Assembly (NCBI GenBank): GCA_963707655.1
Contig: OY970172.1
Span: forward strand, 416,001 to 480,000
Direction: 5' to 3'
Length of the DNA: 64,000 nucleotides
From: an uncultured bacterium
Lineage (GTDB): Bacteria; Babelota; Babeliae; Babelales; Vermiphilaceae
Positions 14,889-42,500 of this stretch are shown here, in pieces; the first letter of the stretch is position 1, and each line of letters begins with the position of its first letter. Position numbers and translations under genes: made by a program. The notes under the pieces were generated by a model. That model was not told where the DNA came from. It saw nothing but the letters and a program-made list of their open reading frames with translations, and searched no databases.

Positions 14889-17800
14889 ATGAATAATGTA
14901 ATGCGTGTTGTTTTAATGAGTATTGTACTGCTTTCTGTGAGCATCGCTGCGCCGGATCAGATTGCGTCGCAAGGCACACAAGAAAATCAGATTATCCTAC
15001 CGGCCGGCACGGTGCAGGCTCTTGCACAATTATCTGAAATTATTAAATCTGACCCAACAAGAACAATGCCACGCTCACTTGAATTGTTGAATCAGAGTGC
15101 TGTTTTGCAAGATGCAGCAACGCTGAACAGCTGCTTGCAAGAGGTCCGTGTAAGTATTGATGACATGCTTGACAATCAGCACTATGATGCTGCACTTAAA
15201 ATAACACTCATACGCATAAAAAATATCATCATCGCGCATGAGCTAGCGCTGAACATACAAGAAATAGATGAAACCGACCTAGATGAAGAAAGCACTCGTG
15301 TGCGCCCATACGGCACACCGGCGCTCTTTTATGGTCCGGTAGTTATTGATGACCCGACAGGAAATCCGGCATTATTGGTTGACGGACCAACGAGCTTGAG
15401 CGAACTGGCCGCAGGTGTTATTACGGCGCAAACCATTAATGTTGATATAGCTTCATTTACCGATCTTACTGTTGATAATTTAACCGTGGTAGATTCATTG
15501 ACTTTAGAATATACAACGCCAGGAGATTTTCTTTATGTAAGTCCTAATGGACAAATTGTTTCACGAAACGTAATTCCCGGCTCCGGTATTCAATCGGTCA
15601 ACAGCGGCGTTAATATTTTTGTTAACAACACATCACCCACGGCACCAATAGTGAATGTTGCTGGCACTACGCCTCTTGCGGTACAAATTGGCAATGCCAC
15701 AAATGGTGGATTGCAATCATTATCATTTGGCACAAGTGGTCAAGTATTAACATCTAATGGCGCGGGAAGTTCTCCATCATGGCAAGCAGCCCCTGCTTCA
15801 AGTATTACCATTACCGGCGATACGGGAGGCGCATTAACCGGAGACAGCTTCACCTTTACCGGCGGCACAACCGGATTAAAATTTAATGGCGGCGGCACAA
15901 CAGAAACCTTAGGTGGTACATTAGCTGTTGCCAATGGCGGTACCGGTGCGACGAGCTTTGGCACAATCGATGGTACCGTATATTATAACGGAACCAATCT
16001 TACGACCACCGCTACGGGAGCCACCGGACAAGTTCTTACTTCCAACGGTACTGGCGCTGCGCCGACATATCAATCAATCAGCGCTATCGGCGCCGTCACT
16101 TCAGTAAACGCCGGGACAGGCATTGACATTACCGGCACGGCCACTGCGCCGATCGTAAATCTTATAACACCGGTGAGTATCGCCAATGGCGGTACCGGTG
16201 CTACGAGCCTTGCTGCCAACGGTATTATTATTTCAAACGCGGGGGGCACTGCGCTCACTTCGCAACAATTAACCAACGGACAACTCTTGATTGGCAATAG
16301 CGGAAATGCTCCATCTGCTGCTCAATTGACTGCCGGAACCGGTATAGTTATTAGCAACGGGGCAGGAAGCATATCAATTAGTGCAAATGGCGGCGGCACA
16401 GTGCCAAATACATTTGTCACCCCTAATGGGACTGCAACACCGGCCGGCGGTGTCATCAATATTAACGGCTCCCCATCGCAAGGTATTACTACCTCTGGCG
16501 CCGGTAATACGGTAACTATCAACGCAACCAATGCAAGCGCTACTGCTAAGGGTGTCGCTTCATTTAGTGCAACAAATTTTACGGTAACCGGCGGCAATGT
16601 GGCCTCAAACAATTTCTCTATTAATCCGGGCACCGGCTTGACCGGTGGCGGCTCATTGACTTTGGGCGGATCAACCACTATCTCATTATCTACGCCGGTT
16701 TCTGTTACCAATGGTGGTACCGGATTATCAACACTCACCGCACATAACGTGCTTCTTGGTGAAGGCACTGCAAATGTTGGCTTTGCGACACCAACGACTA
16801 CTACGGGCATTCCATTAGTATCCACCGGCCCGACTAGTGACCCTGCATTTGGTACTGCATCGGTACAAGGCGGCGGCACCGGATCAACAAGTTTTACCGC
16901 CAATGCACCGGTTATTGCCGGCGCTACTGCAACAAGCGCTCTTACTACTGCAACAACCGGCATAGCTAATAGTGGCTATGTATTTACCAGCACCGGTTCA
17001 TCATCCGCGCCCACATGGCAACCGATCAGTGCAGCCGGCGCAGTAACTTCGGTCAAGGCCGGCAACAATATATCAGTTACCGCCGGAACATCTCCTATCG
17101 TAAGCGTTGCCGGAACAACAACCAATGCGGTGCAAATCGGTAATGCTACAGGATCGTTAACATCACTTGCCGTTGGCACTAATGGCCAGGTATTGCTGGG
17201 CGCTTCCGGGGCTGCGCCTGCGTTCGCAAATCTTACCTCCACTAGTGGCACCCTTGCGTTCACCACCGGGGCAAATAGTCTAAGCATTGACGTTAATGCA
17301 CCACTTCCTATTGCCTATGGGGGCACCAATGCAACGTCAATGACCAATACGGATGGCGTTGTCTATTTTGATGGAACACTATTGAATACCACCACCGTGG
17401 GGACCTCAGGACAAGTATTAACATCACAAGGCGCAGGAATGCCACCAACATTTCAATCAATGCCGGCATCAAGTTCAGCCGATGTTCCCAATACATTGGT
17501 ATTGCGCGATGGCAGCGGTGATTTTGCCACCAACATGATTACTATTGACGGCACACCCTCAGCATCAACCGATGTCGCTACCGTTGCGTATGTGCTGGCA
17601 CATGAAAGTACCGGCCTGGTTGTGCATTCTCCAGCCGTGCTCGTGGGCACCGTCGATGAACCCATTGCCGGACCGGCAACTATTGATGGTTCACCGGTCG
17701 TTTCAGGAGAGCGCATATTGCTGGTTGATCAGACCACCTCAACGCAAAACGGATTATGGCTCGCCGCAGTAGGAGCAGGAAGTCCGTGGAGCAGACCAGA

Positions 17801-20800
17801 TGATTTTTCTAACGGCACTGAAGCAGGTACCGCCTATGTATTGATAACCAACGGGCAAACTTATGCCGGCTCCAGCTGGGTCTGCTCAACACCGACGGCT
17901 ATTATTGGCTCAAGTCCCATCTTCTTCAATGAATTTTCGCTCCCCAGCCAAATAAATGGCGCCAATGTTGGCTCCGGTCCCGGGCAAGTTTTTCAAGGTA
18001 AATCAGGGACTCACTCTCAATTTCAGAACTATTATCGGTGATCCTTATATAGCCGTCGACCACGAGCGCAAGTGAGTTAGCATTACCAGCGATGCAACAA
18101 GTAGCAATACCGCATCAACCATTGTTGCGCGTGATGCAAGCGGCAATTTTTCTGCCGGCACCATCAGCGCAACCAATCTGGTTGATACCGGCGTTAACCA
18201 GTACGCGGTGGTTGTTGGCGGCGGCACCAATCCGTTGACAGGCATTGCCCCTTCTACCGCAGGAAGCGTACTTGTATCAGGCGGTTCTGCCGCTAACCCT
18301 GCATTTGTTGTACCAAGTGTGAACGGCAACGGCCTGAACGTAACGCATACTGCTTCAACCTTGGCATATGGATTGGTTACGCCAGTCATTGTTGCCAATG
18401 GCGGCACCGGCTCAGAATTGTTTAATACTAACGGGATCGTTCTTTCAGGCGCAAGCAGCACAACACCATTAGTTGCACAACAGCTAACGGCGGGAGAACT
18501 GTTGATAGGTACAGCCGCAGGAACGGCACCCTCAGCAGCTCAATTAACCGCAGGGACCGGTATAGCTATTACCAATGGCGCAGGCAGTATATCGATTAGT
18601 GCAAGTGGCGCGCTTCCCGGCACATTTGTAACGCCCAATGGCAACGCAACACCTGCTAGCGGCATCATTAATATTAACGGCTCACCATCACAAGGTATTA
18701 CTACCTCCGGCGCCGGTAATACCATCACCATTAATGCAAACAATGCAAGCACCACCGCTAAAGGTGTGGCATCATTTAATGCAACCAACTTTAGCACCGC
18801 CGCTGGCGTAGTATCATCAAATCCTATTGCCATAAATACGGGTGCCGGCTTGAGCGTAAGCAGTGGCAGCGTAAATTTAGGCGGCACCACCACGATTAGC
18901 CTTACAACAGTTCCTGTTGCCAATGGTGGTACCGGATTATCAACACTCACCGCACACAACGTGCTTCTTGGTGAAGGCACTGCAAATGTAGGCTTTGCTG
19001 CGCCAGGAACTGCCGGACAAATACTCGTTTCAAATGGAGCAGCTGCTGATCCGTCATTCAAATCATTGAGCACTGCTGGCGCAGTTACTCAGATTAATGG
19101 CGACACCGGGTCAGCAATGCCAGCTTCGGGGATCATTACCTTCAATGCAAATTCAAACGCAGGATCAACGGTGGAGTTTAGCGCCTCAGGATCAACGGTT
19201 GATTTATTGGTTACCAATCCAACGACACAAAACACATTCATAGGTCTTATTGCAGGAAATACTAGTTCACCATCGGCGACCGGCAACACCGGCATAGGCT
19301 ATGCTGCCTTGAACAGCAACAAGGGCTCTTCTAACACAGCCTTAGGATTTGAGGCGCTGCTTGACAACACCAGCGGCTCCGGTAATACCGCCATAGGATA
19401 CATTGCTTTGCCAAGCAATAGCACGGGCTCTTCCAATACCGCCTATAGGATACGCTGCCTTGAACAGAAACACCACCGGCTCCTCTAATGTTGCTATCGG
19501 TAACAATGCACTCCAAAATAGTAACGGCAATAATAATGCCGCTTTTGGCTACCAGGCTTTGACTGCGAATACTACCGGATCAAACAATACCGCTGTTGGT
19601 ACCAGTGCTCTGGCAGCAAATACTACCGGCACTCCCAACACCGCTGTTGGTTATCAGGCATTGCTGGTCAACAACACCGGTATAAATAACGTTGCTGTCG
19701 GCTACAATGCCCTTGTTGCAAACACAACCGGTTCTACCAATGTCGCAGTCGGCAACAATGCTTTGGGCACCAATGTCACCACTTCAAATAGTGTTGCTAT
19801 TGGTAATAGCGCCCTGGCTGCTAACACCGCAGCAAACAATACCGCTGTTGGTACCAGTGCTCTGGCAGCAAATACTACCGGCACTCCCAACACCGCTGTT
19901 GGTTATCAAGCATTAAAGCTGAACACCACTGGTGCGAATAATGTTGCGGTTGGCTATGAAGCATTAGCAGTCAATACAACTGGTTCTGCCAACGTCGCGA
20001 TGGGCAACAATGCCTTGGGTGCCAATGTCACCGCTTCAAATAGTGTTGCTATCGGTAACAGTGCTCTAGCTGCTAACACCGCGGCAAACAATACTGCTGT
20101 TGGGTATGACGCCCTGGCTGCCAATAAAACCGGATCTCCCAACACCGCTATTGGTTATAATGCCCTTACTGCTAATACCACCGGCATTAATAACGTTGCT
20201 TTGGGTTATGCCACCCTTGATGCAAATACAACAGGTTCTGCCAACGTGGCGGTAGGTAATAATGCCTTGGGTACCAATGTCACTGCGTCAAATAGTGTTG
20301 CTATTGGTAACAGTGCCCTGGCCGCTAACACCGCATCAGACAATACCGCTGTCGGTACCAGTTCCTTGGCCGCCAATACTACCGGCTCTGGTAATACTGC
20401 CGTTGGAGCTCAAGCATTAAGCCTGAATCAAGGCGGAGCAAGTAATGTCGCCATGGGTTATGAAGCATCACAAAGCAATGTAACCGGATCGAATAACGTC
20501 GCCATAGGATACCAGGCAGCACAACTCGGTACCGGTGGAGGAAACAACGTCGCTATAGGCTTTTTAGCTTTAAATAGTGGTGGCGCTTCATTCGCCAATA
20601 CAGCCATAGGATTTGAGGCATTAGCCGCTAACACCACTGGCACATTTAATGTTGCGATTGGATTTGATGCATTAGAGGCTAATTCAAGAGGTTCTAATAA
20701 TACTGCTGTTGGCTATTCTGCTTTAACGAGTAATGGGGTGTCTAATAATACCGCTGTCGGATATAATGCTCTTGCTAGCAACAGCACCGGCAGCCCCAAC

Positions 20801-21748
20801 ACTGCTATTGGTTACAATGCACTTACCGCTAATAGTACTGGTAGCGCCAATACCGCTGTTGGCTACAATGCGCTTGCATCTAACACGACCGGCGTGAGCA
20901 ATTCAGCTATCGGTGAGGCGGCACTCTTTGCGAACATGACTGGCGGATTCAATACCGCCCTTGGCGTAAGTGCCCTGTCTGCAAACGTATCCGGTTCTCA
21001 AAATACCGCCCTTGGCGTAAGTGCCCTGTCTGCAAACCCATCCGGTTCTAATAACACTGGAGTAGGTTATTGGGCGGGCCAAAGTCTTACGACAGGCAGT
21101 AACAATATTTTTGTAGGCGATTTATCCGGCGGCGCAATGACAAACGGCAGCGGAAACGTGATAATTGGTGTCAATTCAGTACCGGGCACCGGTGCCACAG
21201 CGTGGAACAATAATATATATCTGGGAAATGGTATCACTAATACCGCAGACTCGAACTACATAAGAATAGGAACTCCATCGATTACTTACAATGGATGCTT
21301 CATTCAGGGCATATATGGCGTGGCGGCCACCGGAGCCGGCGTTACGGTCACTAGCAGCGGACAACTGGGCGGCATTATTTCATCCCGCCGCTATAAAGAT
21401 GACATTGTATCACTCAGTCCCGTAACAGACAAGCTTGCACAGCTCAATCCGGTCAGCTTTGCCTATAAAACTGATGACAATAAAACTAAGAACTATGGGC
21501 TCATTGCAGAAGAAGTAGAAGAAATTGATCGCTCATTGGTCATGTACAACGATAACGGCTCCCCTGAGACCGTCTACTACCAGTTCCTGCCACCATTGCT
21601 CCTCAAGGGTTGGCAAGAATTACATGCTCATATGCAGGAGCAAGATGCAGTAATCAAAAAACAAGAAGGTGACATTAACAGGCTGACACAAGAATCTGAA
21701 AACCAACTTGCGATGATTAATGAGTTGTATGCAAAAATAATTGGATAA
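14889..21748 (+). CDS. Giant secreted tail-fibre-like protein 1 (~2,285 aa; joins ORFs 14889-18041, 18208-19488, 19403-21748)
   Basis: Signal peptide; VxxGGTG / GQVLTSNG shaft repeats; NTAxGxxAL beta-roll repeats; C-terminal SSRRYKDDI...LNPVSF...YGLIAEEV (Peptidase_S74-type) plus coiled coil. Indels located by comparison with paralogous blocks: ~18005-18080 net +1, ~19444 +1. Confidence 0.85.
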
Positions 21749-21766
21749 CATTTTTTAAGCGCGGTA

Positions 21767-21803
21767 AGGGGCCAGTTTGATATCAAGCTGGCCCCTCTTT
21801 TTT
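21767..21803 (+). terminator. Intrinsic terminator after giant gene 1
   Basis: AGGGGCCAGTTTGA-TA-TCAAGCTGGCCCCT followed by CTTTTTT. Confidence 0.85.
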
Positions 21804-21991
21804 ATGGTCACAACCCCCTGTGTTATTAATGCCACAATCTAGCCAGTGTACTTGGTTTTTAAAATAATTGATGAAATTTTAATCTATTTTTCCTACCACA
21901 TAAATATTATTTCTCACTTGCCATTGCGAAAAAAATATATAAGTATTAATCCAAAAGTAATGATGAAAAATATCCCCAAAAAAGGAAAAGT

Positions 21992-24900
21992 ATGAACATT
22001 GTATTGCGCGTTTTTTTAATGAGTACCATAGTACTTTCTGTAAGCATCGCTGCGCCCGCTGTACCGGACCCGATTGCGTCACAAGACACACAAGAAAAGC
22101 AGATTATCCTACCAACCGGGGCAACACAAGCTCTGGTGCAATTATCTGAAATTATTAAATCTGACCCGACAAGAAAAATGTATGGCTCACTTGCATCGAT
22201 GAATCAAAGTGCAGCTTTTCAAGACGCTGCAGCAGTGAACAGCTGCTTACAAGAGGCCTGTGTAATTATTGATGACTTACTTGCCGATCCGCAGTCTGAT
22301 GCAACACTCAAAATAACACTTATACGTATAAAAAATATCATCATAGCGCATGAGTTAGCACTGAACGCAGAAGAAGCAGATGAAGAAAGCACACGCATGC
22401 GCCCATACAATACGCCGGCAGCTTTTTACGGTTCGGTAGCTATTAATGACCCGGCAGGAAATCCGGCATTATTGGTCGACGGACCAACGAGCCTGAGCGA
22501 ACTGGCCGCCGGTGTTATTACGGCGCAAACAATTGCTATTGATACCGCTTCATTTACTGATCTCACTGCTGATAATTTAACCGCAGTCGATTCATTTGCC
22601 TTGGATTATGCAACGCCGGGAGATTTTCTTTATGTAAGTCCTAACGGCACCATTGTTTCACGCACAGTAATTCCCGGATCCGGTGTTCAATCGGTCAACA
22701 GCGGCAATAATATTTCTGTTAACAACACGTCGCCCAACGCACCGATAGTAAATGTTGCCGGTACCACAACCAATGCGCTACAAGTTGGTAGTCCAAATGG
22801 GGCACTGCATTCATTATCATTTGGTACAACCGGCCAAATATTAACATCAAATGGCGCAAACAATTCTCCTTCATGGCAAGCAGCGCCTTCTTCAAATGTT
22901 ACCATTACCGGTGATACGGGAGGTGCATTAACCGGAGACAGCTTCACCTTTACCGGCGGCACGACCGGTTTAAAATTTAACGGGACGGGAGCAACGGAAA
23001 CATTAAGTGGTACATTAGCTGTTGCAAGTGGTGGTACGGGGACAATAACCTTTGCAACATATGCACCGGTGATCGGTGGCGTAACAAATCAAGGAGCATT
23101 GCAAAGCGCGTCAACCGGTCAATCGATAGCTGGCTCTGTTTTCACCAGTAACGGTTCAGGGGCGGCGCCAAGCTGGCAACCGATCAGTGCAACCGGCGCG
23201 GTAACATCAGTAAAAGCGGGCAATAATATATCTGTCACCGGCACCGCAACATCACCTACGATAAGTGTTGCAGGCACCACAACCAATGCGGTGCAGATCG
23301 GTAATTCATCAGGATCATTAACATCGCTAGCTCTGGGCAGCAATGGCCAAGTATTACTGGGTGCAACAGGAGCAGCGCCTGCTTTTGCGTCGCTCACGTC
23401 TGCCGGCGGCACAGTCACGTTCACTCCCGGTACAAATTCATTGAGTATCGATGTAACCGCTCCTTTGAATGTTTCTCATGGCGGTACCGGATTAACGAGC
23501 ATTTCACAATATAATGTATTGGTCGGTAACGGCACTTCGGCAATAGCAACTATTGTTCCATCAACAACCATCGGCATTCCGTTAATTTCCAACGGCGTTG
23601 CAGCACAACCTTCATTTGGCACAGCCGTAGTAGCGGGTGGCGGTACGGGTGAGACAAGTTTCACTTCATACGCACCAATTGTTGGCGGAACAACGGGAAC
23701 AGGAGCACTCCAAAGTGCATCAACGGGACAATCGAATAATGGCTATGTTTTCACCAGCAATGGCTCATCTGCTGTTCCTTCTTGGCAGCCGGTTAGCGCA
23801 AGTGGTGCAGTAACCACGGTTGTCGGTGGAACCGGTATAAATATTACCGGCACTACAACTGCTCCTATCGTAAATCTTAATTCTCCCGTCACTGTGTCTC
23901 ATGGCGGTACTGGCTTATCATCACTCGCAGCACACAATCTTTTAGTCGGTGAGGGAACCGCACAAGTTGCTCTGATTGCTCCGGGCTCTGCTGGTCAAGT
24001 ATTAATATCCAACGGTGCAAGCGCGGATCCTTCATTCGGCACAGCAACCGTTCCCGGCGGGGGTACCGGACAAACCAGTTTTACGGCTCATACTGTTTTG
24101 CTTGGTGAAGGGGCCTCATCTATCGCTTCTGCCGGTCCAGGAAATGCCGGCCAGATATTGGTAGCTGCCGGCGCATCGGCCGATCCTGCATTTGTAACAC
24201 CAACTGCGGGCACCGGATTATCTTTGAGTTCCAATTCAACCACATTGCAATATTCATTGTCTATTCCTGTTGCTATCGCCAGCGGCGGAACCAATGCAAC
24301 ATCTATGGCCAATACTGATGGAGTTGTCTATTTTGACGGCACCAAGTTGAATACCACTGCTGTTGGCGCAGCCGATTATATATTGACTTCTAATGGTTCT
24401 GGCAATGCGCCCTCTTTTCAACCGGCGAGCACCTCGGTCTCGTAACTTCAGTGAAGCCCGGCAATAATATATCTGTCACCGGCACCGCAACGTCTCCGAT
24501 AGTTAACGTTGCAGGCACCACAACAAATGCCGTGCAGATCGGCAATGCTTCCGGATCACTAACCTCATTAAATGTCGGAAGCAGTGGACAAGTATTGCTC
24601 GGCGCAACCGGAGCGGCACCCGCTTTTGCTTCGCTCACATCTACCGGCGGCACACTCACGTTTACTCCCGGAGTCAATTCATTGAGTATCGATGTAACCG
24701 CACCCTTGAATGTTTCTCATGGCGGCACTGGATTAACGACAATATCCCAATACAACCTTCTCACTGGCAATAATACTTCAGCTCTTTCACTCATTGCTCC
24801 ATCATCAACAAGCGGCATTCCGTTAATTTCTAACGGCGTTGCAGCACAACCTTCATTTGGCACAGCCGTAGTGGCGGGTGGGGGTACCGGTCAGACGAGT

Positions 24901-27900: not shown

Positions 27901-30900
27901 TCTGCAGCTCAATTGACTGCCGGAACCGGTATAGTTATTACCAACGGTGCGGGAAGCATATCAATTAGTGCAAATGGCGGCGGCACAGTGCCCAATACAT
28001 TTGCTACCCCTAATGGTACTGCAACACCGGCCGGCGGTGTTATCAATATTAACGGCTCCCCATCGCAAGGTATTACTACCTCCGGCGCCGGCAATACAGT
28101 AACTATCAACGCAACCAATGCAAGCACCACTGCTAAGGGTGTCGCTTCATTTAGTCCAACAAATTTTACGGTAACCGGTGGCAATGTAGCCTCCAACAAT
28201 TTCTCTATTAATCCGGGCACCGGCTTGACCGGTGGCGGCTCATTGACTTTGGGCGGATCAACCACTATCTCATTATCTACGCCGGTTTCTGTTACCAATG
28301 GTGGTACCGGATTATCAACACTCACCGCACATAACGTGCTTCTTGGTGAAGGCACTGCAAATGTTGGCTTTGCTGCCCCACCTGCTACTACGGGCATTCC
28401 ATTAGTATCTACCGGCGTGACTAGTGACCCTGCATTTGGTACAGCATCGGTACAAGGTGGCGGCACCGGATCAACAAGTTTTACCGCCAATGCACCGGTT
28501 ATTGCCGGCGCTACCGCAACAAGCGCTCTTACTACTGCAACAACCGGCATAGCTAATAGTGGCTATGTATTTACCAGCACCGGTTCATCATCCGCGCCCA
28601 CATGGCAGCCGATCAGTGCAAGTGGTGCCGTAACTTCAATAAAAGCGGGCAACAATATATCAGTTACCGCCGGAACATCTCCTATCGTAAGCGTTGCCGG
28701 AACAACAACCAATGCGGTGCAAATCGGTAATGCTACAGGATCGTTAACATCACTTGCCGTTGGCACTAATGGCCAGGTATTGCTCGGCGCTTCCGGCGCT
28801 GCGCCTGCGTTCGGAAATCTTACCTCCACCAGTGGCACCCTTGCGTTCACCACCGGGGCAAATAGTCTAAGCATTGACGTTAATGCACCGCTGCCTATTG
28901 CCTATGGGGGCACCAATGCAACGTCAATGACCAACACTGATGGTGTTGTCTATTTTGATGGAACACTATTGAATACCACCACCGTGGGGACCTCAGGACA
29001 AGTATTAACATCACAAGGCGCAGGAATGGCGCCAACATTTACCTCATTGCCGGCATCAAGTTCAGCCGATGTTCCCAATACATTGGTAATGCGCGATAGC
29101 AGCGGTGATTTTGCCACCAACATGATTACTATTGACGGCACACCCTCAGCATCAACCGATGTTGCTACCGTTGCGTATGTGCTGGCACATGAAAGCACCG
29201 GCCTGGTGGTGCATTCTCCAGCCATACTCGTGGGTACCGTAGATGAGCCTATTGCCGGACCGGCAACTATTGATGGTTCACCCGTTGTTTCCGGCGAACG
29301 CATATTGTTAGTTGATCAGTCCACCTCAACGCAAAATGGCCTGTGGATAGCCGCGGTCGGTGGAACATCGCCTAGCTTTTCTCCTTGGTATCGCCCTGAT
29401 GATTTTTATACTGGAACTCAGGCAGGTACCGCCTATGTATTAATAACTGGCGGGCAAACCTATGCCGGCTCCAGCTGGGTCTGCTCAACACCAACGGCGA
29501 TTATTGGCTCAAGTCCCATCTTCTTCAATGAATTTTCGCTCCCCAGCCAAATAAATGGCGCCAATGTTGGCTCCGGTCCCGGACAAGTTTTTCAAAGCAA
29601 ATCGGGACTCACTCTTAATTTTAGAACTTTGACCGGTGATCCTTACATAACGGTTGGCACAACCGGGAATGAAGTTACCATCACCAGTGATGCAACTTCT
29701 CTCAATACAAGCTCTACGATTGTTGCTCGTAATAGTTCTGGCAATTTTGCTGCCGGCACTATTAGCGCAACCAATCTGGTTGATACCGGCATTAATCAAT
29801 ATGCCGTAGTGGTTGGCGGCGGCACCAATCCGTTGACAGGTATTGCGCCTTCTACCGCGGGAAGCGTATTGATATCAGGCGGTTCATCGGCCAATCCTTC
29901 ATTTGTTGTACCAACGGCAGGTACCGGCCTGGCCGTAACACAAAACGCAACAACCTTGTCATATGGGTTAGTTACACCGGTCGTTATTGCCAATGGCGGA
30001 ACCGGCTCAACATCGTTTAATCCCAATGCTATTGTTCTTTCAAACGCAGCCGGCACGGCCCTCACGTCGCAACAATTAACTAACGGACAATTACTCATCG
30101 GCAGTACCGGCGCAGCACCCTCAGCAGCTCAATTAACCGCAGGAACCGGCATATCTATTGCCAATGGCGCAGGAACTATCTCGATCAGCACCAGTGGTGC
30201 AGTTCCCGGCACATTTGTAACGCCCAATGGGGACGCAACACCAGCCGGCGGCATCATTAATATTAACGGCTCCCCATCACAAGGTATTACTACCTCCGGT
30301 GCCGGCAATACAGTCACTATCAGTGCAGCCAATGCAAGCACTACTGCTAAGGGTGTCGCTTCATTTAGTCCAACAAATTTTACGGTAACTGGTGGCAATG
30401 TGACTTCAAACCCATTTACTATCGCTGCAGGAACCGGATTGACCGGCGGCGGCTCATTCACTTTGGGCGGGTCTACCACACTCGCATTATCCACACCGGT
30501 TTCAGTTACCAATGGTGGTACCGGATTATCAACATTAACGGCACACAACGTGCTTCTTGGTGAAGGCACTTCAAATGTAGGTTTTGTTGCGCCCGGAGCA
30601 GCAGGCATCCCCTTAATTTCAAATGGCGCCAGTAGCGATCCTATATTTGGCACAGCGGTTGTAGCCGGTGGTGGCACGGGTTCAACTTCGTTTAATACTC
30701 ATGGTGTTGTCACTTCAGGCTCTTCAGCCACATCCCCTTTAACCGCGCTCACCCTAACTAACGGTCAACTGGTGATCGGTAGCACCGGAGCCGATCCAAT
30801 CGCGGCTACCTTAACTCAAGGAACCGGTATCTCTATTACCAATGGCGCAGGAAGTATTACTATCGCATCATCCGGATCGGTACCAACAATGTTTACTGAA

Positions 30901-33900
30901 AATAGCGGAACCGCAACCCCGGCAAGTAACAACTTGAATATTCTCGGCTCACCTACTCAGGGGATTACCACTGCGGGTAGCGGATCAACCATTACTATCA
31001 GCGGCATTAATGCGACATCATCACAAAAAGGTATCGCTTCGTTTAGTCCGACAAATTTTACGGTGACCGGCGGCAATGTAGTCTCCAAGATTTTCTCCAT
31101 TAATCCGGGCACTGGCTTGACCGGTGGCGGCTCATTGACTTTGGGCGGGTCAATAACCATCTCATTATCTACACCAGTTTCAGTCGCCGACGGCGGAACC
31201 GGACTATCAACATTGACCGCACACAACGTGCTTCTTGGTGAAGGCACTTTAGATGTAGCCTTTGCTGCGCCAGGAGCGGCAGGAATTCCATTAATTTCAA
31301 ATGGCGCTAGCAGCGATCCATCATTTGGCACCGCGGTTGTAGCCGGTGGTGGAACGGGCGCAACAACATTAACAACGCATAATGTGATCTTGGGTGCAGG
31401 CACCGCAGCTGTAGGCTTTGCTGCCCCAACCGCTACAACCGGTATACCGTTAATTTCTAACGGTTCTTCTGCCAATCCATCATTTGGCACCGCGGTTGTA
31501 GCCGGTGGCGGTACCGGGCAAATAAGCTTTACACCCTATGCGCCCATTATTGCCGGCGCTACTTCAACAAGCGCTCTTTTAAGCGCAACAAGCGGCATAG
31601 CAAACAGTGGTTATGTGTTCACCAGCACCGGCGCGTCAACATCACCAACATGGCAAGCGGTTCCTGCTTCAAGCATTACCGTTACCGGTGATACCGGCGG
31701 CCCGTTAACCGGAAATAGCTTCACGTTCACCGGCGGCACCACCGGATTAAAGTTCAACGGCGCAGGAACAACAGAAACATTAGGCGGTACATTAGTCGTT
31801 GCCAATGGGGGCACCGGTGCAACAACCCTTACCGGTGTTCTTATTGGCAATGGCGCATCTGCCATTACCGGCAATCCAATTACCCAATATGATGTGTTGG
31901 TTGGTGGCGCGAGTAATGCTATTAGTTCTGTTGCCCCTTCAACAACAACTGGCATACCGTTAATTTCTAATGGTTCTTCTGCCAATCCATCATTTGGTAC
32001 CGCTGTTGTAGCCGGTGGTGGAACGGGTTCAACTTCGTTTAATACTCATGGTGTTGTCACTTCAGGCTCTTCAGCCACATCCCCATTAACCGCGCTCACC
32101 TTAACTAATGGTCAACTAGTGATTGGTAGCACCGGAGCCGATCCGATCGCTGCTACATTAACTCAAGGCACCGGTATCTCTATTACCAGTGGTGCAGGCA
32201 GTATTACTATCGCATCATCCGGATCGGTACCCACAACGTTTACTGAAAACAGCGGCACCGCGACGCCGGCAAGCAATAATTTAAATCTTTTGGGCTCGCC
32301 TACTTTCGGTATTACCACTGCGGGCAGCGGGTCAACCGTTACTATCAGTGGCATTAATGCAAGCACATCCCAAAAAGGTGTCGCCTCATTTAGCCCAACC
32401 AATTTTACGGTAACTAGCGGCAACGTTGTCTCAAACAACTTTACTATCACCGCTGGCACCGGATTAACCGGTGGTGGCGCACTGACCTTGGGCGGATCAA
32501 CCACTATCTCATTATCTACACCGGTTTCAGTGACCAATGGCGGTACCGGATTATCAACATTAACGGCACATAATGTGCTTCTTGGTGAAGGCACTTCAAA
32601 TGTAGGCTTTGTTGCTCCTGGATCTGCGGGCATTCCATTAATTTCTAATGGCGCTAGCAGCGATCCTATATTTGGCACAGCTGTTGTAGCCGGTGGTGGA
32701 ACAGGCGCAACATCATTTACTTCATTCGCGCCACTTATTGGTAATGGAACAAGCGCGGTGCAAACTGCTTCCAGTGGACAATCTACTAGCGGCTACGTTT
32801 TCACCAGCACCGGTTCATCATCCGCTCCAACATGGCAGCCAGTAAGTGCAAGTGGCGCGGTAACTTCAGTAACTGGTGGCAATAATATAGCAATTACCGG
32901 CACTGCAACGGCACCAGTCGTGAACGTTGCCGGAACAACAGCCAATGCTGTGCAGGTTGGCTCTCCAAACGGCGCGCTTCATTCATTACCGGTCGGCACC
33001 AATGGCCAAGTGTTATTAGGGGCTACCGGGGCGTATCCTGCATTTGGCACCTTAACTTCTACAAGCGGCACGATCAGCTACACAACCGGCGCAAATTCAT
33101 TATCTATTGATCTTGTACCCGTTACCGTTGCTCATGGTGGCACCGGTGCAACAACTCTTACGCAATACGATGTGTTAGTCGGCAACGGTACTTCTGCGAT
33201 AACAACCGTAGCTCCTTCTGCGACAACGGGCGTTCCATTGATTTCAAACGGTTCTGCAGCTAATCCATCATTTGGCACCGCATTAGTAGCGGGTGGTGGC
33301 ACGGGTTCGACTTCATTCAATGCCAATGGAGTAGTGATTTCAGGAACAACGGGAACTTCAGCATTGAGTTCGCTCAGCTTGACTAACGGACAAGTAGTAA
33401 TTGGTAGTAGCTCCGGCGCACCTGCAGCTGCTACTTTGACAAATGGCACCGGTATTTCTATTACCAACGCGGCCAACTCTGTTACCATTGCAGCTTCTGG
33501 AGCAGTTCCTACAACGTTCACTGAAAACAGCGGCACCGCAACCCCGGCAAGCAACAACTTAAATATTATCGGATCACCTACTCAAGGCATTACCACTGCG
33601 GGCAGCGGATCAACCGTTACTATCAGTGGCATTAATGCGACATCAACACAAAAAGGTATCGCATCGTTCAATTTAACCGAGTTCACGGTAGCCTTGGGAG
33701 CTGTAACTTCAAATCCATTCACCATCACTGCCGGCACCGGCTTAACCGGCGGCGGGTCGTTGAATTTGGGTGGATCAACAACAATCTCATTATCTACACC
33801 GGTTTCAGTAGCCAATGGCGGCACCGGTTTGCCAACACTCACCGCGCACAATGTTCTTCTTGGTGAAGGCACTTCAAATGTAGGCTTTGTTGCACCCGGA

Positions 33901-36900
33901 TCTGCAGGCATACCATTAATATCAAATGGGGCTTCAAGTGATCCAATCTTTGGCACCGCGACGGTACCCGGCGGCGGCACCGGCGATACGAGCTTTACTG
34001 CCTATGCACCAATTACCGGTGGTTCGACATCCACAGGAAATTTACAAAGCGCTTCTTCAGGACAAAGCAATGTGGGTTATGTGCTCACCAGCACCGGTAC
34101 AACCTCTCTGCCAACATGGCAAGCAGTTACCGCAGGTGGCGGCATTGTTACTTCAGTTAGCGCGGGAAATAATATAGCAATTACCGGCACCGCAACGGCG
34201 CCAATAGTAAATGTTGCCGGAACAACACCAAATGCGGTACAGGTTGGTTCTCCCGATGGGGCGTTGCATTCATTACCGGTCGGTACCAATGGTCAAGTAC
34301 TTATTGGGGCAACCGGGGCGTATCCTGCATTTGGCACCTTAACTTCTACAAGCGGCACGATCAGCTACACAACCGGCGCAAATTCATTATCTATTGATCT
34401 TGTACCGGTTACCGTTGCTCATGGTGGCACCGGTGCAACAACTCTTACGCAATACGACGTGTTGGTCGGCAACGGCACTTCTGCCATAACAACCGTGGCA
34501 CCTTCTTCAACAATCGGGGTCCCGTTAATTTCCAACGGTTCTTCTGCCAATCCATCATTTGGCACCGCATCGGTAGCGGGTGGTGGCACGGGTTCAACTT
34601 CATTCAATGCTAATGGAGTAGTGATTTCAGGAACAACGGGAACTTCAGCATTAAGTTCGCTCAGCTTGACTAATGGACAAGTAGTAATTGGTAGCAGTTC
34701 TGGCGCGCCTGCAGCTGCTACGTTGACAAATGGCACCGGTATTTCTATTACCAATGCAGCCAACTCTATTACCATTGCAGCTTCTGGAGCGGTTCCTACA
34801 ACTTTCACCGAAAATTCAGGTACTGCAGCCCCGGCAAGTAACAACTTAAATATTATCGGCTCACCAACCTTCGGCATTACCACTGCGGGCAGCGGATCAA
34901 CCGTTACTATCAGCGGCATTAATGCGACATCAACACAAAAAGGTATTGCGTCGTTCAATTTAACCGAGTTCACGGTAGCCTCGGGAGCTGTAACTTCAAA
35001 TCCATTCACCATCACTGCCGGCACCGGCTTAACCGGCGGCGGGTCGTTGAATTTGGGTGGATCAACAACAATCTCATTATCCACGCCAGTTTTAGTTACC
35101 AATGGCGGTACCGGCCTATCAACATTGACCGCGCACAATGTACTTCTTGGTGAAGGCACTTCAAATGTTGGCTTTGTTTCGCCCGGAGCGGCAGGCATTC
35201 CATTAATTTCTAATGGCGCTAGCAGCGATCCGATATTTGGCACAGCTGTTGTAGCCGGTGGCGGAACGGGCGCGACATCATTTACTTCATTCGCGCCACT
35301 TATTGGTAATGGAACAAGCGCTGTGCAAACCGCTTCCAGTGGACAATCTACTAGCGGCTATGTGTTCACCAGCACCGGTTCATCATCCGCTCCAACATGG
35401 CAGCCAGTAAGCGCAAGTGGCGCGGTAACTTCAGTAACTGGCGGCAACAATATAGCAATTACCGGCACCGCAACGGCGCCAATAGTGAACGTTGCCGGAA
35501 CAACACCAAATGCAGTACAGGTTGGTTCTCCCGATGGCGCGCTGCATTCATTACCGGTCGGTACCAATGGTCAAGTATTACTCGGGGCAACCGGCGCAAA
35601 TCCTGCATTTGCCACACTGATCTCTACCGGCGGAACACTCACTTATACACCAGGCGCCAATTCACTCAATATTGATCTTACCATACCGGTTACCGTTGCT
35701 CATGGTGGAACCGGCGCAACGACTCTTACCCAGTACAATGTGCTGCTTGGCGAGGGAACAGCAGCTGTTGGTTTTGCCACACCAGGATCTGCGGGCATTC
35801 CATTAATTTCTAACGGTTCTTCTGCCAATCCATCATTCGGCACCGCATTAGTAGCAGGCGGTGGCACGGGCCAAACAAGCTTTACCCCATATGCGCCCAT
35901 TATTGCCGGTGCTACTTCAACAAGCGCTCTTATAAGCGCCACGAGCGGCATAGCAAACAGTGGTTACGTGTTCACCAGCACCGGCGCATCAACGTCACCA
36001 TCGTTCCAATCTCTCGGCTCTCTAGGAGCAGTTACAAGCGTTAACGGTGATACCGGATCTATAACACCGACCTCAGGTGTAATAGCATTCAATGCACTGT
36101 CTACCGCCGGTTCAACGGTGATGTTCTCACCAACCAATAGTTCAACAATGGCATTGTATACAACCTCACCAACGCTGCTCAACACGCTCATTGGTCTAGG
36201 TGCAGGCAATAGTAGTGTAACGGGTACTGAGAATACCGGTGTTGGCTATCAAGCATTAAATAAATTAACTTCAGGATCAAACAATACGGCTTTTGGTTAT
36301 CAGGCTTTGACTGTGAATACTGGCGGATCAAACAATATTGCTATGGGAAACAAGGCCCTGGCAGCTAATGTCACTGCATCAAATAGTGTTGCTGTTGGTA
36401 ATAGCGCTCTGGCCGCTAACACCGCAGCAAACAATACCGCTGTTGGTACCAGTGCTCTGGCAGCAAATACTACCGGAACTCCCAACACCGCTATTGGTTA
36501 CAATGCATTGCTGGTCAACAACACCGGTATAAATAACGTTGCCCTTGGTTATAGCCCACTCGTACACAACACAACCGGCTCTGCAAATATTGCTATAGGG
36601 AACAAGGCTCTTGCAGCGAATACCACTGCATCAAATAGTGTTGCTGTTGGTAATAGCGCTCTGGCCGCTAACACCGCAGCAAACAATACCGCCGTTGGTA
36701 CCAGTGCCCTGGCAGCAAATACTACCGGCACTCCCAACACCGCTGTTGGTTACCAAGCATTAACAGCAAATACTACCGGTATGAATAATGTTGCTATAGG
36801 TGATCAAGCATTAGCTGCAAATACTACAGCTGTTCAAAGCACCGCTGTGGGTCATGTTGCGTTAACGCTCAGTAACGGTAGCTATAATACTGCCGTGGGA

Positions 36901-39900
36901 TCTCAAGCATTAACTGCAAATACAACAGGCATTGCTAACACGGCTATAGGGACGGCTACAATGCAAAGCAATACAACAGGGACGAACAATACTGCTGTTG
37001 GATTCCAAGCACTAAACGCCAACATAGGTGGAGGAACCAATACCGCTGTGGGCTATCAAGCCCTTAAATTAAACACATCCGGTCAAAATAACGTTGCAAT
37101 TGGTAACCTTGCCTTGGGCGCAAATCTCACTGCTTCAAATAGTGTTGCTGTTGGTAACAGCGCTCTAGGTGGTAACACCGTTGCAAACAATACTGCTGTT
37201 GGCACCGGCGCTTTGGCCGCCAATACCACCGGATCTCCCAACACTGCTGTTGGTTATAATGCCCTTACAGCTAATACTACGGGCATCAATAACGTTGCTT
37301 TGGGTCATCAAACTCTTGATGCAAACACAACCGGTTCCGCCAACGTCGCGATAGGTAATAATGCCTTGGGTGCCAATGTCACCGCTTCAAATAGTGTTGC
37401 CGTTGGTAGCAGTGCCCTTGCTCTTAACACGTCGTCAAATAATACCGCTGTTGGCTGGAACGCTTTAACGAGCAGCACTGCGAGTCCAAACAGTGCATTT
37501 GGCTATGCTGCATTGCAAAATACTACAACAGGTACCGGTAATACTGGCATCGGCTATGAGGCTTTACAAAACAACAGTTCCGGTGCCACCAATATTGCTC
37601 TTGGTTATCAAGCCGGTTCTGCTTTAACAACCGGATCCAACAATATTGATATTGGCAATAGCGGAGTAGCGGCTGAATCAAACACCATACGTATTGGTAC
37701 TCAAGGCACTCAAACATCGTGCTACATTAGCGGTATCACCGGAATAACCACCGCAAATACCAACATTGCTACTATCAATTCATCAACGGGACAGCTTGGC
37801 GCGACTAATACCGTTTCAGTTGCCAATGGCGGAACCGGCGCGAACAGCCTTACTGGTGTGCTTATTGGCAATGGCACATCTGCAGTTACCGGAAATCCGA
37901 TTACCCAGTATGATGTGTTGGTCGGTGGTGCAAGCAACGCGATTAGCTCTATTGCTCCTTCAACAACAACCGGCATTCCGTTCATTTCTAACGGTTCTTC
38001 TGCCAATCCAGCATTTGGCACCGCTGTTGTAGCAGGCGGTGGCACGGGCTCAACTTCGTTTAATACTCATGGTGTTGTCACTTCAGGCTCTTCAGCCACA
38101 TCCCCATTAACAGCGCTCACCTTAACGAATGGTCAACTGGTGATCGGTAGCACCGGAGCCGATCCAATCGCCGCTACCTTAACTCAAGGAACCGGTATCT
38201 CTATTACCAATGGCGCAGGAAGTATTACTATCGCATCATCCGGATCGGTACCAACAACGTTTACTGAAAATAGCGGAACCGCAACCCCGGCAAGCAACAA
38301 CTTAAATATTCTCGGCTCGCCTACTCAGGGCATTACCACTGCGGGTAGCGGATCAACCGTTACTATCAGCGGCATTAATGCGACATCAACACAAAAAGGT
38401 ATTGCGTCGTTCAATTTAACCGAGTTCACGGTAGCCTCGGGAGCTGTAACTTCAAATCCATTCACCATCACTGCCGGCACCGGCTTAACCGGCGGCGGGT
38501 CGTTGAATTTGGGTGGATCAACAACAATCTCATTATCCACGCCAGTTTCAGTTACCAATGGCGGTACCGGCCTATCAACATTGACCGCGCACAATGTACT
38601 TCTTGGTGAAGGCACTTCAAATGTTGGCTTTGTTTCGCCCGGAGCGGCAGGCATTCCATTAATTTCTAATGGCGCTAGCAGCGATCCGATATTTGGCACA
38701 GCTGTTGTAGCCGGTGGCGGAACGGGCGCGACATCATTTAATACTCATGGTGTTGTCACTTCAGGCTCTTCAGCCACATCTCCATTAACAGCGCTCACCT
38801 TAACTAATGGTCAACTGGTGATCGGTAGCACCGGAGCCGATCCAATCGCGGCTACACTAACTCAAGGCACCGGCATCTCTATTACCAATGGTACAGGAAG
38901 TATCACTATCGCATCATCCGGATCGGTACCAACAACGTTTACTGAAAACAGCGGCACGGCAACCCCGGCAAGTAACAACTTGAATATTCTCGGCTCGCCT
39001 ACTCAGGGCATTACCACTGCGGGTAGCGGATCAACCGTTACTATCAGCGGCATTAATGCGACATCAACACAAAAAGGTATCGCTTCGTTTAGTCCAACAA
39101 ATTTTACAGTAACCGGCGGCAATGTAGTCTCCAAGATTTTCTCCATTAATCCGGGCACTGGCTTGACCGGTGGCGGTCATTGACCTTGGGTGGTTCAACC
39201 ACCCTCTCATTATCTACACCGGTTTCAGTCGCCAATGGCGGCACCGGATTACCAACATTGACCGCGCACAACGTGCTTCTTGGTGAAGGCACTGCAAATG
39301 TAGGCTTTGCTGCGCCAGGAACTGCCGGACAAATACTCGTTTCAAATGGAGCAACTGCTGATCCGTCATTCGAATCATTGAGCAGCGCTGGCGCAATTAC
39401 TCAGATTAATGGCGACGCTGGATCAGCAACGCCGGCTTCGGGGATCATTACCTTCAATGCAAATTCAAACGCAGGATCAACGGTTGAGTTTAGCGCCTCA
39501 GGATCAACGGTTGATTTATTGGTTACCAATCCAACGACACAAAACACATTCATAGGTCTTGCTGCAGGAAATACTAGTTCACCATCGGCGACCGGCAACA
39601 CTGGCATAGGCTACGCTTCCTTGAATAACAACAAGGGCACTTCTAACACAGCCTTAGGATTTGAGGCCCTGTTTGCCAACACCACCGGTGGCGGCAACAC
39701 CGCCATAGGATACATTGCTTTGCCAAACAATAGCACGGGCTCTTCTAATACCGCCATAGGGTACGCTGCCTTGAACAGCAACACCACTGGCTCCTCTAAT
39801 GTTGCTATTGGTAACAATGCACTCCAAAATAGCAACGGCAATAATAATGTTGCTTTTGGCTATCAAGCAGGTTCTGCATTGACAACCGGATCTAACAATA

Positions 39901-42500
39901 TTGATATCGGCAATAGCGGTGTAGCTGCTGAATCAAACACCACTCGCATCGGCACTCAAGGAACTCAAACATCGTGCTATATTAGTGGTATAACCGGAGT
40001 AACCACTGCCAATACCAACATTGCTACTATCAATTCATCAACCGGACAGCTTGGCGCGACTACTACAGTTTCCGTCGCCAACGGCGGAACCGGCGCTAAC
40101 AGCCTTACCGGCGTTTTAATAGGTAATGGCACATCTGCAGTAACCGCTAATCCGATTACCCAATTTGATGTGTTAGTTGGTGGCGCAAGCAACACGATTA
40201 GCTCGATTACACCAAGCACCGCGGATTTTGTATTGACCTCCAACGGCACAAGCGCCAACCCATCGTTCCAATCTCTCAGCTCTTTAGGAGCGGTTACAAG
40301 TGTTAATGGTGATACAGGATCTATAACACCGACCTCGGGTGTAATAGCATTCAAGGCACTTTCTACTGCCGGGTCAACGGTAATGTTCTCGCCAACCAAT
40401 AGTTCAACAATGGCATTGTATACCACCTCACCAACACTGCTCAACACGCTCATTGGGTTAGGTGCAGGCAATAGTAGTGTAACGGGTACTGACAATACCG
40501 GTGTTGGCTATCAAGCATTAAATAAATTAACTTCAGGTGCGAATAATACCGGTATCGGCTATCAGGCTTTGGCTGCGAATACTACCGGATCAAACAATAT
40601 TGCTATGGGAAACAAGGCCCTTGCAGCTAATACCACTGCAGCAAACAATACCGCTGTTGGTACCAGTGCTCTGGCTGCAAATACTACCGGCACTCCCAAT
40701 ACCGCTATTGGTTACAATGCATTGCTGGTCAACAACACCGGTGTAAATAACGTTGCTCTGGGCTACAGCCCACTGGTAAGCAACACAACCGGCTCTGCAA
40801 ATATTGCTATAGGGAACAAGGCCCTTGCAGCGAATACCACTGCATCAAACAATACAGCCGTTGGCACCAGTGCTCTGGCAGCAAATACTACCGGCACTCC
40901 CAACACCGCCATTGGCTACAATGCGTTGCTGGTCAACAACACCGGTGCTAACAACGTCGCTCTTGGGTATACAACTTTAGATGCAAACACAACTGGTTCT
41001 GCCAACGTTGCGGTAGGTAACAATGCTTTGGGCGCCAATGTCAGCGCTTCAAATAGTGTTGCTATCGGCAACAATGCTCTAGCTGCTAACACCGCTTCAA
41101 ACAATACCGCTGCTGGTACTAGTGCTCTGGCAGCAAATACTAGCGGCACCCCCAATACCGCTATCGGTTACAATGCGTTGCTGGTTAACAATACCGGTGC
41201 GAATAACGTCGCCCTTGGTTATCAAGCTCTCAAAGCAAACACAACAGGTTCTACCAACGTCGCGATAGGTAATAATGCTTTGGGCGCCAATGTCAGCGCT
41301 TCAAATAGTGTTGCTGTTGGTAACGGTGCTCTGGCTGCTAACACCGCTGCGGATAATACCGCCGTTGGCGCTAGCTCTCTCGCTGCCAATACCACTGGAA
41401 TCGAAAATAGTGCCGTGGGCTTTCAAGCGTTACAAAATAATACAACAGGAACTTGTAATAATGCGTTGGGATGCTTTGCATTACAAGATAATACTGGCGG
41501 ATCATTTAACATTGCCATAGGACATGATGCATTACTAACGAATACCAGTGCTTCTAACAATGTCGCTATCGGAGAAAGCAGTTTGAAAGCAAATACCGCA
41601 GCAAACAATACCGCTGTTGGGTATAGCGCTTTGACCGCCAATACCACCGGATCTCCCAACATTGCTGTTGGTTATAATGCCCTAACTGCCAATACTACGG
41701 GTATAAACAATGCCGCTGTTGGTTACAATGCTCTTTATATAAATACCACTGGTTCATACAATACCGCTCTGGGAATGCTTGCGCTAAGCACCATTGCTAC
41801 AGGGTCTAACAACACAGCAATAGGTTTTGATGCTGCCCAAAGTCTTACAACGGGCAGTAATAATATTTTTATTGGTGTAGGATCCGGTGGCACCCTAGGA
41901 AACGGCAGCAACAACGTGATAATCGGTAATGAGGCGCAGCCCGGCAGCCCCACTGGTACCTGGAGCAATAATATATACCTAGGAAATGGCATCACTAATT
42001 ACGCGGACCAGAACTACATCAGAATAGGAAATCCCTCAACCGGTTACAACGCATGCTTCATTCAGGGCATATATAATATGACAAATTCTGGACTCCCAAA
42101 CGTCTATGTGGATGTCAATGGACAACTCTGGAAATCTACCACCCCTTCATCACGTCGCTACAAAGACGACATTGCATCGCTCAGTCCCGTGACAGGCAAG
42201 CTTGCTCAGCTTAATCCGGTCAGCTTTGCCTATAAAACTGATGACAACAAAACTAAGAACTATGGGCTTATTGCAGAAGAAGTACAGGAAATTGATCGCT
42301 CATTGGTCATGTACAATGATAACGGCTCCCCTGAGACCGTCTACTACCAGTTCCTGCCACCATTGCTCCTCAAGGGTTGGCAAGAACAGCAGCATGAATT
42401 AATGGCACAACGCGCCGAGCTTGACGAATGCAAGCGCATCATGGCAGAACAACAAAAAAGACTCGATGCACTCTATGCGCATATGGGATTAGCAGCATAA
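21992..42500 (+). CDS. Giant secreted tail-fibre-like protein 2 (~6,836 aa; joins ORFs 21992, 24451, 26378, 26908, 39180)
   Basis: Signal peptide and N-domain paralogous to gene 1; same repeat types; C-terminal S74-type chaperone. Single-base indels at ~24432 (-1), ~26055 (+1), ~26840 (-1) and ~39178 (-1) are each visible against an intact repeat copy and match the ORF frame changes. Confidence 0.85.
23222..26946 (+). repeat. Three tandem ~1,242-bp (414-aa) intragenic repeat units
   Basis: Anchor AATAATATATC recurs at 23222, 24463, 25705 and 26947. Confidence 0.85.

Follow-up and report, generated by a model that had tools for sequence, protein, structure and literature searches.

The window analysed here, a stretch of 64,000 nt, corresponds to positions 416,001-480,000 of a single 1,091,075-bp contig (OY970172.1, assembly GCA_963707655.1) that represents the genome of an uncultured bacterium, rated 88.6% complete. 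It carries two adjacent, co-directional paralogous genes on the + strand, flanked by those for FtsK (12647-14764) and MurF (42559-44136); the paralogous pair probably encodes Sec-exported homotrimeric fibres resembling the tail fibres of phages. Fibre gene 1 extends from an ATG at 14889 to a stop at 21748, and fibre gene 2 from an ATG at 21992 to a stop at 42500. Four single-base indels in each gene divide them, in this assembly, into three frames and five pieces, respectively, and coordinate arithmetic with the net indels gives about 2,285 codons for gene 1 and about 6,836 for gene 2. The 5′ leaders of the two genes resemble each other, with an AGGA ribosome-binding site 5 nt before each ATG (14880-14883 and 21983-21986), and both genes are followed by a terminator-like hairpin with a T tail (21767-21796, 13 pairs, after gene 1 and 42529-42560, 14 pairs, after gene 2). 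An earlier note on this DNA had described the same layout, that is two paralogues of about 2,285 and 6,836 aa after repair, each with its own ribosome-binding site and terminator and both between ftsK and murF, and our recomputed coordinates confirmed it.

The two genes belong to a small family. The genome has four Peptidase_S74 matches, and all four end proteins that share one plan, of 543, about 2,285, about 6,836 and 7,366 aa, and that sit among housekeeping genes. The third paralogue, of 7,366 aa, lies unbroken on the - strand between Ku and the Tol-Pal genes (G000:C1:555819-577919) in an uninterrupted frame of 7,397 codons, and the conserved core of its N-terminal part is more divergent (TYGPVSINSQDNRPGLVVNG). 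The small paralogue (approximately G000:C1:45553-47184, - strand), near thioredoxin, CysS and bamA, is intact with its 543 aa and represents the minimal version of the plan.

Behind the N-terminal part, gene 1 encodes a first block of GGTG / GQVLTSNG-type repeats (approximately 15600-17460, with a weak match to the PHROG tail-fibre family phrog_31660), a collar domain (RDGSGDF...NGLWLAA...FNEFSLP; 17469-17999; phrog_2647, E 9.4e-15), a second block of GGTG-type repeats recognised by their motifs (approximately 18100-19280), an NTAxG array of about 35 units of 17 residues with a 51-nt period (19285-21100) and a Peptidase_S74 domain (21380-21541), all on the + strand. Gene 2, on the same strand, encodes a collar 93% identical to that of gene 1 (29056-29601) and three NTAxG arrays, the first internal one at 36232-37700 and the second and third within 39597-42030. 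Each array closes with a neck motif (IRIGT...C.I.GI), which reads IRIGT...CYISGI at the end of the first array of gene 2 and lies near 39942 and 42018 in the other two, and the C-terminal Peptidase_S74 domain (42147-42308) follows the last array only. Regular expressions matched the GGTG motif 6 times in gene 1 and 46 times in gene 2, and the NTAxG-type motifs number 35 and 57, respectively. The Pfam profile of Peptidase_S74 (PF13884) scored 43.6 bits in gene 1 and 41.0 bits in gene 2, with a cut-off of 22 and over profile positions 1-57 of 58. The first serine of the SSRRYK motif falls on profile position 1 and the lysine stands five residues on, giving an S-x4-K dyad in both genes (Ser codons 21380 and 42147, Lys codons 21395 and 42162); the corresponding motif is SSRRHK in the third paralogue and SSRRYK in the small copy. 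The motif counts and the Pfam scores thereby confirmed the repeat anatomy that the earlier note had described (GGTG-type repeats, NTAxG repeats and a C-terminal SSRRYK domain), together with its assignment of the C-terminal domain to Peptidase_S74 with a Ser-Lys motif. In the pieces scanned no Pfam family beyond PF13884 was found, and no LPxTG motif was found either. The precedents of the K1F endosialidase, the T5 protein pb1 and Bd3182 of Bdellovibrio suggest that the domain would act as a chaperone that drives trimerisation and would cleave itself off.

Both proteins start with a basic and then hydrophobic segment, with an 11-residue core (Kyte-Doolittle 2.5-3.0) followed by SIA|A, which agrees with the signal peptides proposed in the earlier note. 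For gene 1 this signal-peptide-like N-terminus comprises residues 1-21 (14889-14951) and is assigned from sequence features only. The same basic-then-hydrophobic start was present in all seven full N-termini, namely those of the four paralogues and of the relatives P0124, P0125 and P0126. The roughly 110 residues that follow it have a pI of 4.2-4.3 in both proteins; in gene 1 this acidic, variable region (residues 22-135, pI 4.2; 14952-15293) precedes a conserved N-terminal core (residues 137-225; 15297-15563), and it is missing in P0125, a relative of 399 aa. There was no lipobox at the N-termini, and no later segment resembling a transmembrane helix in the two sequences that the scan covered, namely gene 1 as far as 18003 and the full length of the 7,366-aa paralogue. 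The consensus of the conserved core is RVRPYGTPAxFYGPVxIDDPxGNPA...LTVDNLTVxDSLTLxY; it could be aligned across eight sequences and is kept in all four paralogues as well as in relatives of 399 to 3,047 aa.

A trimer prediction of the N-terminal domain, as proposed in the earlier note, was run with three copies of residues 110-234 and an eight-row alignment that we supplied. The ipSAE was 0.91 in each of three runs and 0.00 in the best of three controls, with at least 84% of the contacts in agreement between runs and a pLDDT of at least 79. This score is a confidence of the model and no measurement, and its calibration, in which the mark was reached by 20 of 30 solved one-chain pairs versus 1 of 23 single chains, is only rough for three copies and an alignment of our own. 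In the model the interface is continuous over residues 137-225 and the register shifts by about five residues between chains, which suggests that the core forms an intertwined homotrimer, and it is a candidate for the cell-proximal base of the fibre. If an anchor exists, the conserved core is a stronger candidate for it than the acidic region, which varies and is lacking from the 399-aa relative. The view that the shared N-terminal domain is the best anchor candidate, already taken in the earlier note, is thus strengthened by the predicted trimer and by the lack of a viral relative: among 21 pattern matches in viral contigs none was related to the core. An exhaustive phmmer search with residues 1-230 against 1,835,955,588 representatives returned only five proteins at E <= 0.001, one of them near-identical, one a 113-aa fragment and three of the same plan with 399, 2,234 and 3,047 aa. 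Among 261 genomes of the phylum the domain was found in two, the one studied here and, as a weak match, one of the same genus. A four-row alignment of the core compared with genome contigs left one of 17 pattern matches, a weak match of 19 residues in an Edaphocola metagenome-assembled genome, which we counted as no relative.

The remaining modules have clear counterparts in phages. The NTAxG arrays matched PHROG families of tailspikes and virion structural proteins at E 1e-92 to 1e-103, and of 76 pattern matches to the collar in viral contigs 15 encode relatives, which share 26-38% identity with it and are parts of fibre-like proteins of 600-1,900 aa. A structure model of the collar from 7 sequences was unusable (pLDDT 35.8) and was replaced by one from 21 sequences, with a mean pLDDT of 74.4 and values of 85-96 over residues 51-160. 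This model matched 92 viral predicted structures (BFVD) at E <= 0.001, mostly tail-fibre proteins, and the matches include 'Mtd N-terminal domain' proteins and S74-bearing proteins. The comparison of the collar with the PDB by Foldseek gave 101 matches, none of them at E <= 0.001, and VIA-align wide found no chain among 48,161 at Z >= 5, the best being a siphophage baseplate chain (Z 4.8), so that the fold has no assigned counterpart among solved structures. A PDB sequence search with pieces of 781 and 1,050 aa gave no match and one match, respectively; the latter, to flagelliform fibroin (E 0.004), was at chance level and was rejected. The structural matches of the collar also include giant viruses of protists, with a 'tail fiber protein' of Mimivirus LCMiAC01 and a collagen-repeat protein of Indivirus, and fibre modules may be common to parasites that infect the same hosts.

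In regards to the organism, the genome has four TLC ATP/ADP translocase matches in three open frames, genes for BamA and Tol-Pal, and two secretins, which are the sole outer-membrane conduits found in it. TolC/OEP gave no match in the genome, with positive controls, nor did the YadA anchor PF03895, whose control was positive in E. coli, and no autotransporter barrel was found. The earlier note had reported neither an autotransporter barrel nor a sortase motif in the two proteins, and the genome bears this out. The closest named giant relative, of 2,268 aa and 58% identity, is annotated as 'tail fiber domain-containing protein [Candidatus Dependentiae bacterium]'. According to PMC4776705 all TM6 genomes have two gspD copies, and cultured Dependentiae are described as infecting protists. 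To judge from these genome traits and the one named homologue, the host of the genes is probably a small-genome diderm energy parasite of protists, a member of the Dependentiae (TM6).

The closest system described so far is the mosaic adhesive trimer (MAT) family of Bdellovibrio bacteriovorus. According to Caulton et al. 2024 (PMC10769870) the family comprises 21 proteins, of which 13 end in S74; every member carries a signal peptide and a beta-rich, conserved N-terminal domain of about 130 aa with neither a solved structure nor a solved homologue. The MAT fibres are trimeric, beta-helical and located on the predator surface, Bd3182 cleaves itself at the S74 serine, the dyad motif is given as SDxxxK, and the fibre tip measures 150 A per 370 residues. 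Our proteins resemble them as a chromosomal multigene family of a cell that lives on other cells, and in the combination of a signal peptide, a conserved N-terminal domain thought to hold the fibre, a trimeric fibre and a C-terminal S74 with S-x4-K; the homotrimer is here predicted for the conserved core (ipSAE 0.91) and implied at the C-terminus by S74. However, MAT proteins have about 600-1,150 aa, whereas the present ones reach 7,366 aa and are up to seven times longer, the products of genes 1 and 2 being about two to seven times longer, and they add an acidic region of about 110 aa ahead of the conserved core and shafts in which GGTG repeats are combined with a phage collar and multiple internal NTAxG arrays. 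The N-terminal domains show no apparent sequence likeness, to judge from the outcome of the phmmer search (five proteins of 113-3,047 aa, none of which had a name in the cluster look-up). The targets probably differ as well, the MAT fibres belonging to a predator of bacterial prey and the present lineage being probably Dependentiae, with protist hosts.

With phage fibres and tailspikes, such as the K1F endosialidase and the T5 L-shaped fibre protein pb1 (PF13884), the proteins share the S74 domain and its dyad, an NTAxG beta-helical region that matches PHROG tailspikes, and a collar fold common to many viral fibre proteins. In contrast to them they have no virion context, a signal-peptide-like start and an N-terminal part without viral relative, and their length is several times that of the viral proteins that bear the collar (600-1,900 aa). 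They also recall the trimeric autotransporter adhesins of the YadA family, which are long trimeric fibres of diderms with short head-like repeats, and JGI labels several homologues 'trimeric autotransporter adhesin'. However, the C-terminal membrane anchor that defines this family is absent from the protein pieces scanned and from the genome, and we therefore rule out that identity. The polarity would moreover be reversed, with the C-terminus cut off here and the N-terminus as the likely base.

Whether genes 1 and 2 are intact in the cell depends on the nature of their frame breaks. The single-base indels lie at about 18005, about 18057, 18074/75 and 19440 in gene 1, and at about 24435, 26055, 26845 and 39170 in gene 2. 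The first three of gene 1 form a cluster (18005-18075, + strand) in which straight reading runs into an in-frame TGA at 18073-18075, and the fourth is an insertion of one base (19440-19441, + strand) that is absent from the paralogous repeats and from P0127. Every indel is a lone base contradicted by all paralogous repeat copies, and none lies inside a long homopolymer. P0127, a protein of 2,260 aa encoded on a 245,884-bp contig of another assembly, matches the three pieces of gene 1 at 99.5, 97.0 and 99.0% identity and continues, collinear and unbroken, through both break sites of that gene. Close to its C-terminus it carries a frameshift that the window does not have, which is the pattern expected of random errors. 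Among short-read contigs from four soil-metagenome runs, 49 pieces could be aligned with the window, 33 of them at least 99% alike. Over window positions 18049-18075 a contig of run X2 lacks one base, has another substituted and carries an extra one, so that the TGA is gone and the frame is open; this comparison covered gene 1, whose uncovered parts are uninformative.

Ordinary genes of the window are broken too. The ftsH gene (46324-48193, + strand) is split into 209 and 426 aa by one extra base near 46915, whereas FtsH is whole, with 622 aa, in a sister assembly, and xerD (51300-52273, - strand) has a frameshift near 51500 that leaves its C-terminal catalytic part in another frame, which indicates that the indel errors of the assembly extend to ordinary genes. 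For FtsK, comparison with the N-terminus of the E. coli protein suggests that the first membrane helix is in another frame (ORF 12402-12695, region 12402-12700, + strand), and this break, at a T-rich stretch, is probably another single-base error. Behind the breaks of the fibre genes the frames have not accumulated stops, and the one after about 26845 is open for 4,120 codons. The breaks are probably, to judge from these comparisons, mostly or wholly errors of sequencing or assembly, and the split gene calls of this assembly are unreliable. We consider it very likely that gene 1 is intact in the cell and likely, with noticeably less assurance, that gene 2 is. The 'indel repair' made in the earlier note is thus backed for gene 1 by P0127 and the short-read contig, while for gene 2 it is still unproven. 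Programmed frameshifting or phase variation was ruled out because the indels are outside repeats and slippery runs and differ between assemblies. A code with TGA as a sense codon at 18073 was also ruled out, since TGA serves as a stop in other frames and two further data sets show an open frame at this site. A genome-wide count of frameshifts through overlapping same-strand frames gave 235 candidate pairs, mostly ordinary operon neighbours, and was dropped.

The same breaks are the starting point of the rival explanation that the two genes are decaying pseudogenes, in which the frameshifts and the TGA at 18073-18075 would be real mutations of a shrinking genome and no full-length product would be made. 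Reduced genomes of host-dependent bacteria carry pseudogenes, and a number of observations weigh against intact, exported fibres. The indels are unevenly spread, with eight in the 27.4 kb of genes 1 and 2, none in a long homopolymer, against zero in the 22.2-kb third paralogue; the density exceeds that of the flanking genes, the other approximately 36 kb of the window having two sure cases. The sister assembly likewise has gene 2 in fragments (820, 1,883 and 460 aa), the first of which ends within about five codons of the break at 24435, so that at this shared site a real lesion and a systematic error are indistinguishable. The sister sequence there resembles the third paralogue, and the sister assembly may therefore be chimeric. 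The independent evidence that the breaks are errors concerns gene 1 only, and its short-read part consists of one contig at 2-4x depth; none of the 29 of 50 short-read pieces listed spans 18005 or 19440. As for export, the signal peptides were judged only by eye and by hydropathy, and the Sec route would leave a chain of up to 7,366 residues waiting unfolded in the periplasm until its C-terminus arrives. We know of no system with a demonstrated ability to carry such a trimer across an outer membrane. Decay of the genes nevertheless seems improbable to us, given that gene 1 is open through both break sites in P0127 and through 18049-18075 in the short-read contig, that the different frameshift of P0127 fits random errors, that even the essential ftsH is broken in the window and whole in the sister assembly, that no stops stand behind the breaks in frames open for up to 4,120 codons, and that at every indel all paralogous repeat copies disagree with the assembly.

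Even if the genes are intact, they could encode the tail fibres of a prophage, a tailocin or a contractile injection system located elsewhere in the genome, since all modules but the N-terminal part have phage relatives and the NCBI name of the closest homologue is 'tail fiber domain-containing protein'. We regard this as very improbable. There is no phage gene in the 64-kb window or beside two other copies of the family, all three loci have housekeeping neighbours, and a search for phage particles with three marker families (HK97 capsid, contractile sheath and TerL ATPase; PF05065, PF04984, PF03354) found them in none of five genomes, our own included, with positive controls. The signal-peptide-like starts would be needless for virion fibres, which are assembled in the cytoplasm, and the conserved core has no viral relative. 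The genomic context and these starts support the genes as cellular and not as parts of a virion. The earlier note had seen no phage context and had asked whether homologues lie in prophage or tailocin loci, and the paralogue neighbourhoods, being those of housekeeping genes, agree with it. Its term 'domesticated tail fibres' is fair for the shaft, the collar and the tip, since those modules are phage-like, but it does not extend to the N-terminal base, for which no viral relative was found. Another explanation, somewhat less remote though doubtful, is that the proteins are trimeric but are not anchored adhesins, and are instead released, form a coat or matrix, or act inside the host, for example by tethering membranes or organelles. 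This would fit the lack of an anchor of known type (YadA, autotransporter barrel, lipobox, LPxTG or, in gene 1 to 18003 and the 7,366-aa paralogue, a later transmembrane segment), the two secretins, which could release folded periplasmic proteins, and a Dependentiae isolate that targets the host mitochondrion according to the title of a preprint (10.1101/379388). However, a conserved trimeric core in all four paralogues and in relatives of 399-3,047 aa fits a docking base, as is argued for the MAT proteins, S74-bearing phage and MAT fibres attach by the N-terminus, and release is likewise without supporting evidence.

We thus return to exported trimeric fibres, and the function that we find likeliest, with a confidence slightly above the balance, is that of length-graded, S74-matured surface fibres for host contact. 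The N-terminal signal peptide would take each chain across the inner membrane, as its sequence features suggest. Three C-terminal S74 domains would then associate and nucleate the trimer folding of the NTAxG beta-helix and of the rest of the shaft, and each would cut itself off at the serine of SSRRYK with the help of the lysine five residues on, an activity presumed from the K1F endosialidase, T5 pb1 and Bd3182. The conserved core (residues about 137-225) would be the trimeric base at the cell and the processed C-terminal beta-helix the distal binding tip; the trimerisation of the core is a prediction, and the orientation follows that of phage and MAT fibres. The four paralogues would give a graded reach of approximately 22, 93, 277 and 299 nm, figures that are extrapolated from the 150 A per 370 residues of MAT and are rough, as they assume a similar rise per residue throughout. 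The likely use would be attachment to the host or to other cells, and surface exposure, host attachment and the route of export are all inferred. The fullest version of this model, in which a lineage-specific trimeric base joined to phage modules yields a set of fibres of about 20-300 nm that leave the cell by an undescribed diderm route (Sec and then the outer membrane, perhaps through the two secretins), is speculative and, taken as a whole, unlikely.

If the model is true, the longest fibres would be near the size of the cell itself and could act like the fibrils of giant viruses, provoking uptake by amoebae or other protists, and the collar fold common to the mimivirus-like 'tail fiber' proteins would hint at an exchange of modules between parasites that have hosts in common. 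Dependentiae are a widespread phylum with almost no cultured members, and the fibres would bear on how their protist hosts are met and entered. Single genes of the family reach 22 kb, or 2% of the 1.09-Mb genome; together with S74 domains in 70 of 261 genomes of the phylum and up to 17 matches in one of them, this is a large investment for a reduced genome and makes the fibres a concrete candidate for host recognition. The principle of the MAT family, that parts of phage fibres are reused as cellular adhesins, would be extended to another phylum and to far greater lengths, and a question common to both systems is sharpened, namely how a trimer folded from its C-terminus leaves a diderm cell and yet stays on it.

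The earlier note was for the most part correct on the nature of the proteins but overstated how singular such fibres are: the MAT proteins (PMC10769870) follow the same plan, at least 7,872 of the 8,000 candidates scored are relatives of the NTAxG+S74 module, and Peptidase_S74 occurs in 70 of the 261 genomes of the phylum, that is in 48 of 189 high-quality genomes and in 39 of 145 genera. Databases label the relatives of the module 'trimeric autotransporter adhesin' or 'tail fiber domain-containing protein', and contigs of megabase size carry some of them. The genome of the phylum with the most S74 matches (17) has about 1.5 Mb, and among 150 matches listed there are frames of at least 5,000 aa in four genomes (7,397, 7,403, 6,614 and 5,700 aa). 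In the literature searched, which did not cover subscription journals, we found no description of such fibres in Dependentiae: the main text of the Dependentiae genome papers searched (including PMC4776705) contains neither 'fibr-' nor 'fiber', 'Dependentiae' and 'tail fiber' co-occur only in unrelated passages, and the readable text of the supplements of the MAT paper mentions neither 'Dependentiae' nor 'TM6' nor 'Babela'.

Some further observations concern the relatives and the surroundings of the locus. Four genomes of the same family (G244, G247, G256 and G255), of 1.3-1.7 Mb, have 14-17 Peptidase_S74 matches each, and in G244 the matches are packed in about 80 kb (G244:C1:1,135,000-1,216,000), in frames of 515 to 5,700 aa; such clusters look like large islands of fibre genes. 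P0134, P0135 and P0137, encoded on one 220,632-bp metagenome contig, have 2,982-5,619 aa with the same collar and repeats but a different, Cys-rich N-terminal domain (CPLVPCSPF...VDAVPRFADTNCRTIQKNLGPV), which suggests, at the level of sequence, that base domains are interchangeable on similar shafts. P0126 (3,047 aa) has an extra shaft module, with YVTN/NHL-like beta-propeller repeats (ITPDGSTAYVSNNNGNSVSIIDIATNTVTG...) within the fibre, and a segment resembling a right-handed beta-helix is inserted in its shaft. Within the window, just ahead of the fibre locus, a tandem set of five paralogous ORFs, each of 647-674 aa, occupies 450-11007 on the - strand (450-2447, 2582-4534, 4669-6612, 6862-8886 and 9001-11007); these ORFs had no match in NCBIfam or Pfam and form an expanded lineage-specific family. 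Finally, at 57103-59583 (+ strand) lies a gene for a protein of 826 aa whose match reports no FtsH protease domain and which has three FtsH/CDC48-type AAA+ modules, an unusual triple-AAA architecture.

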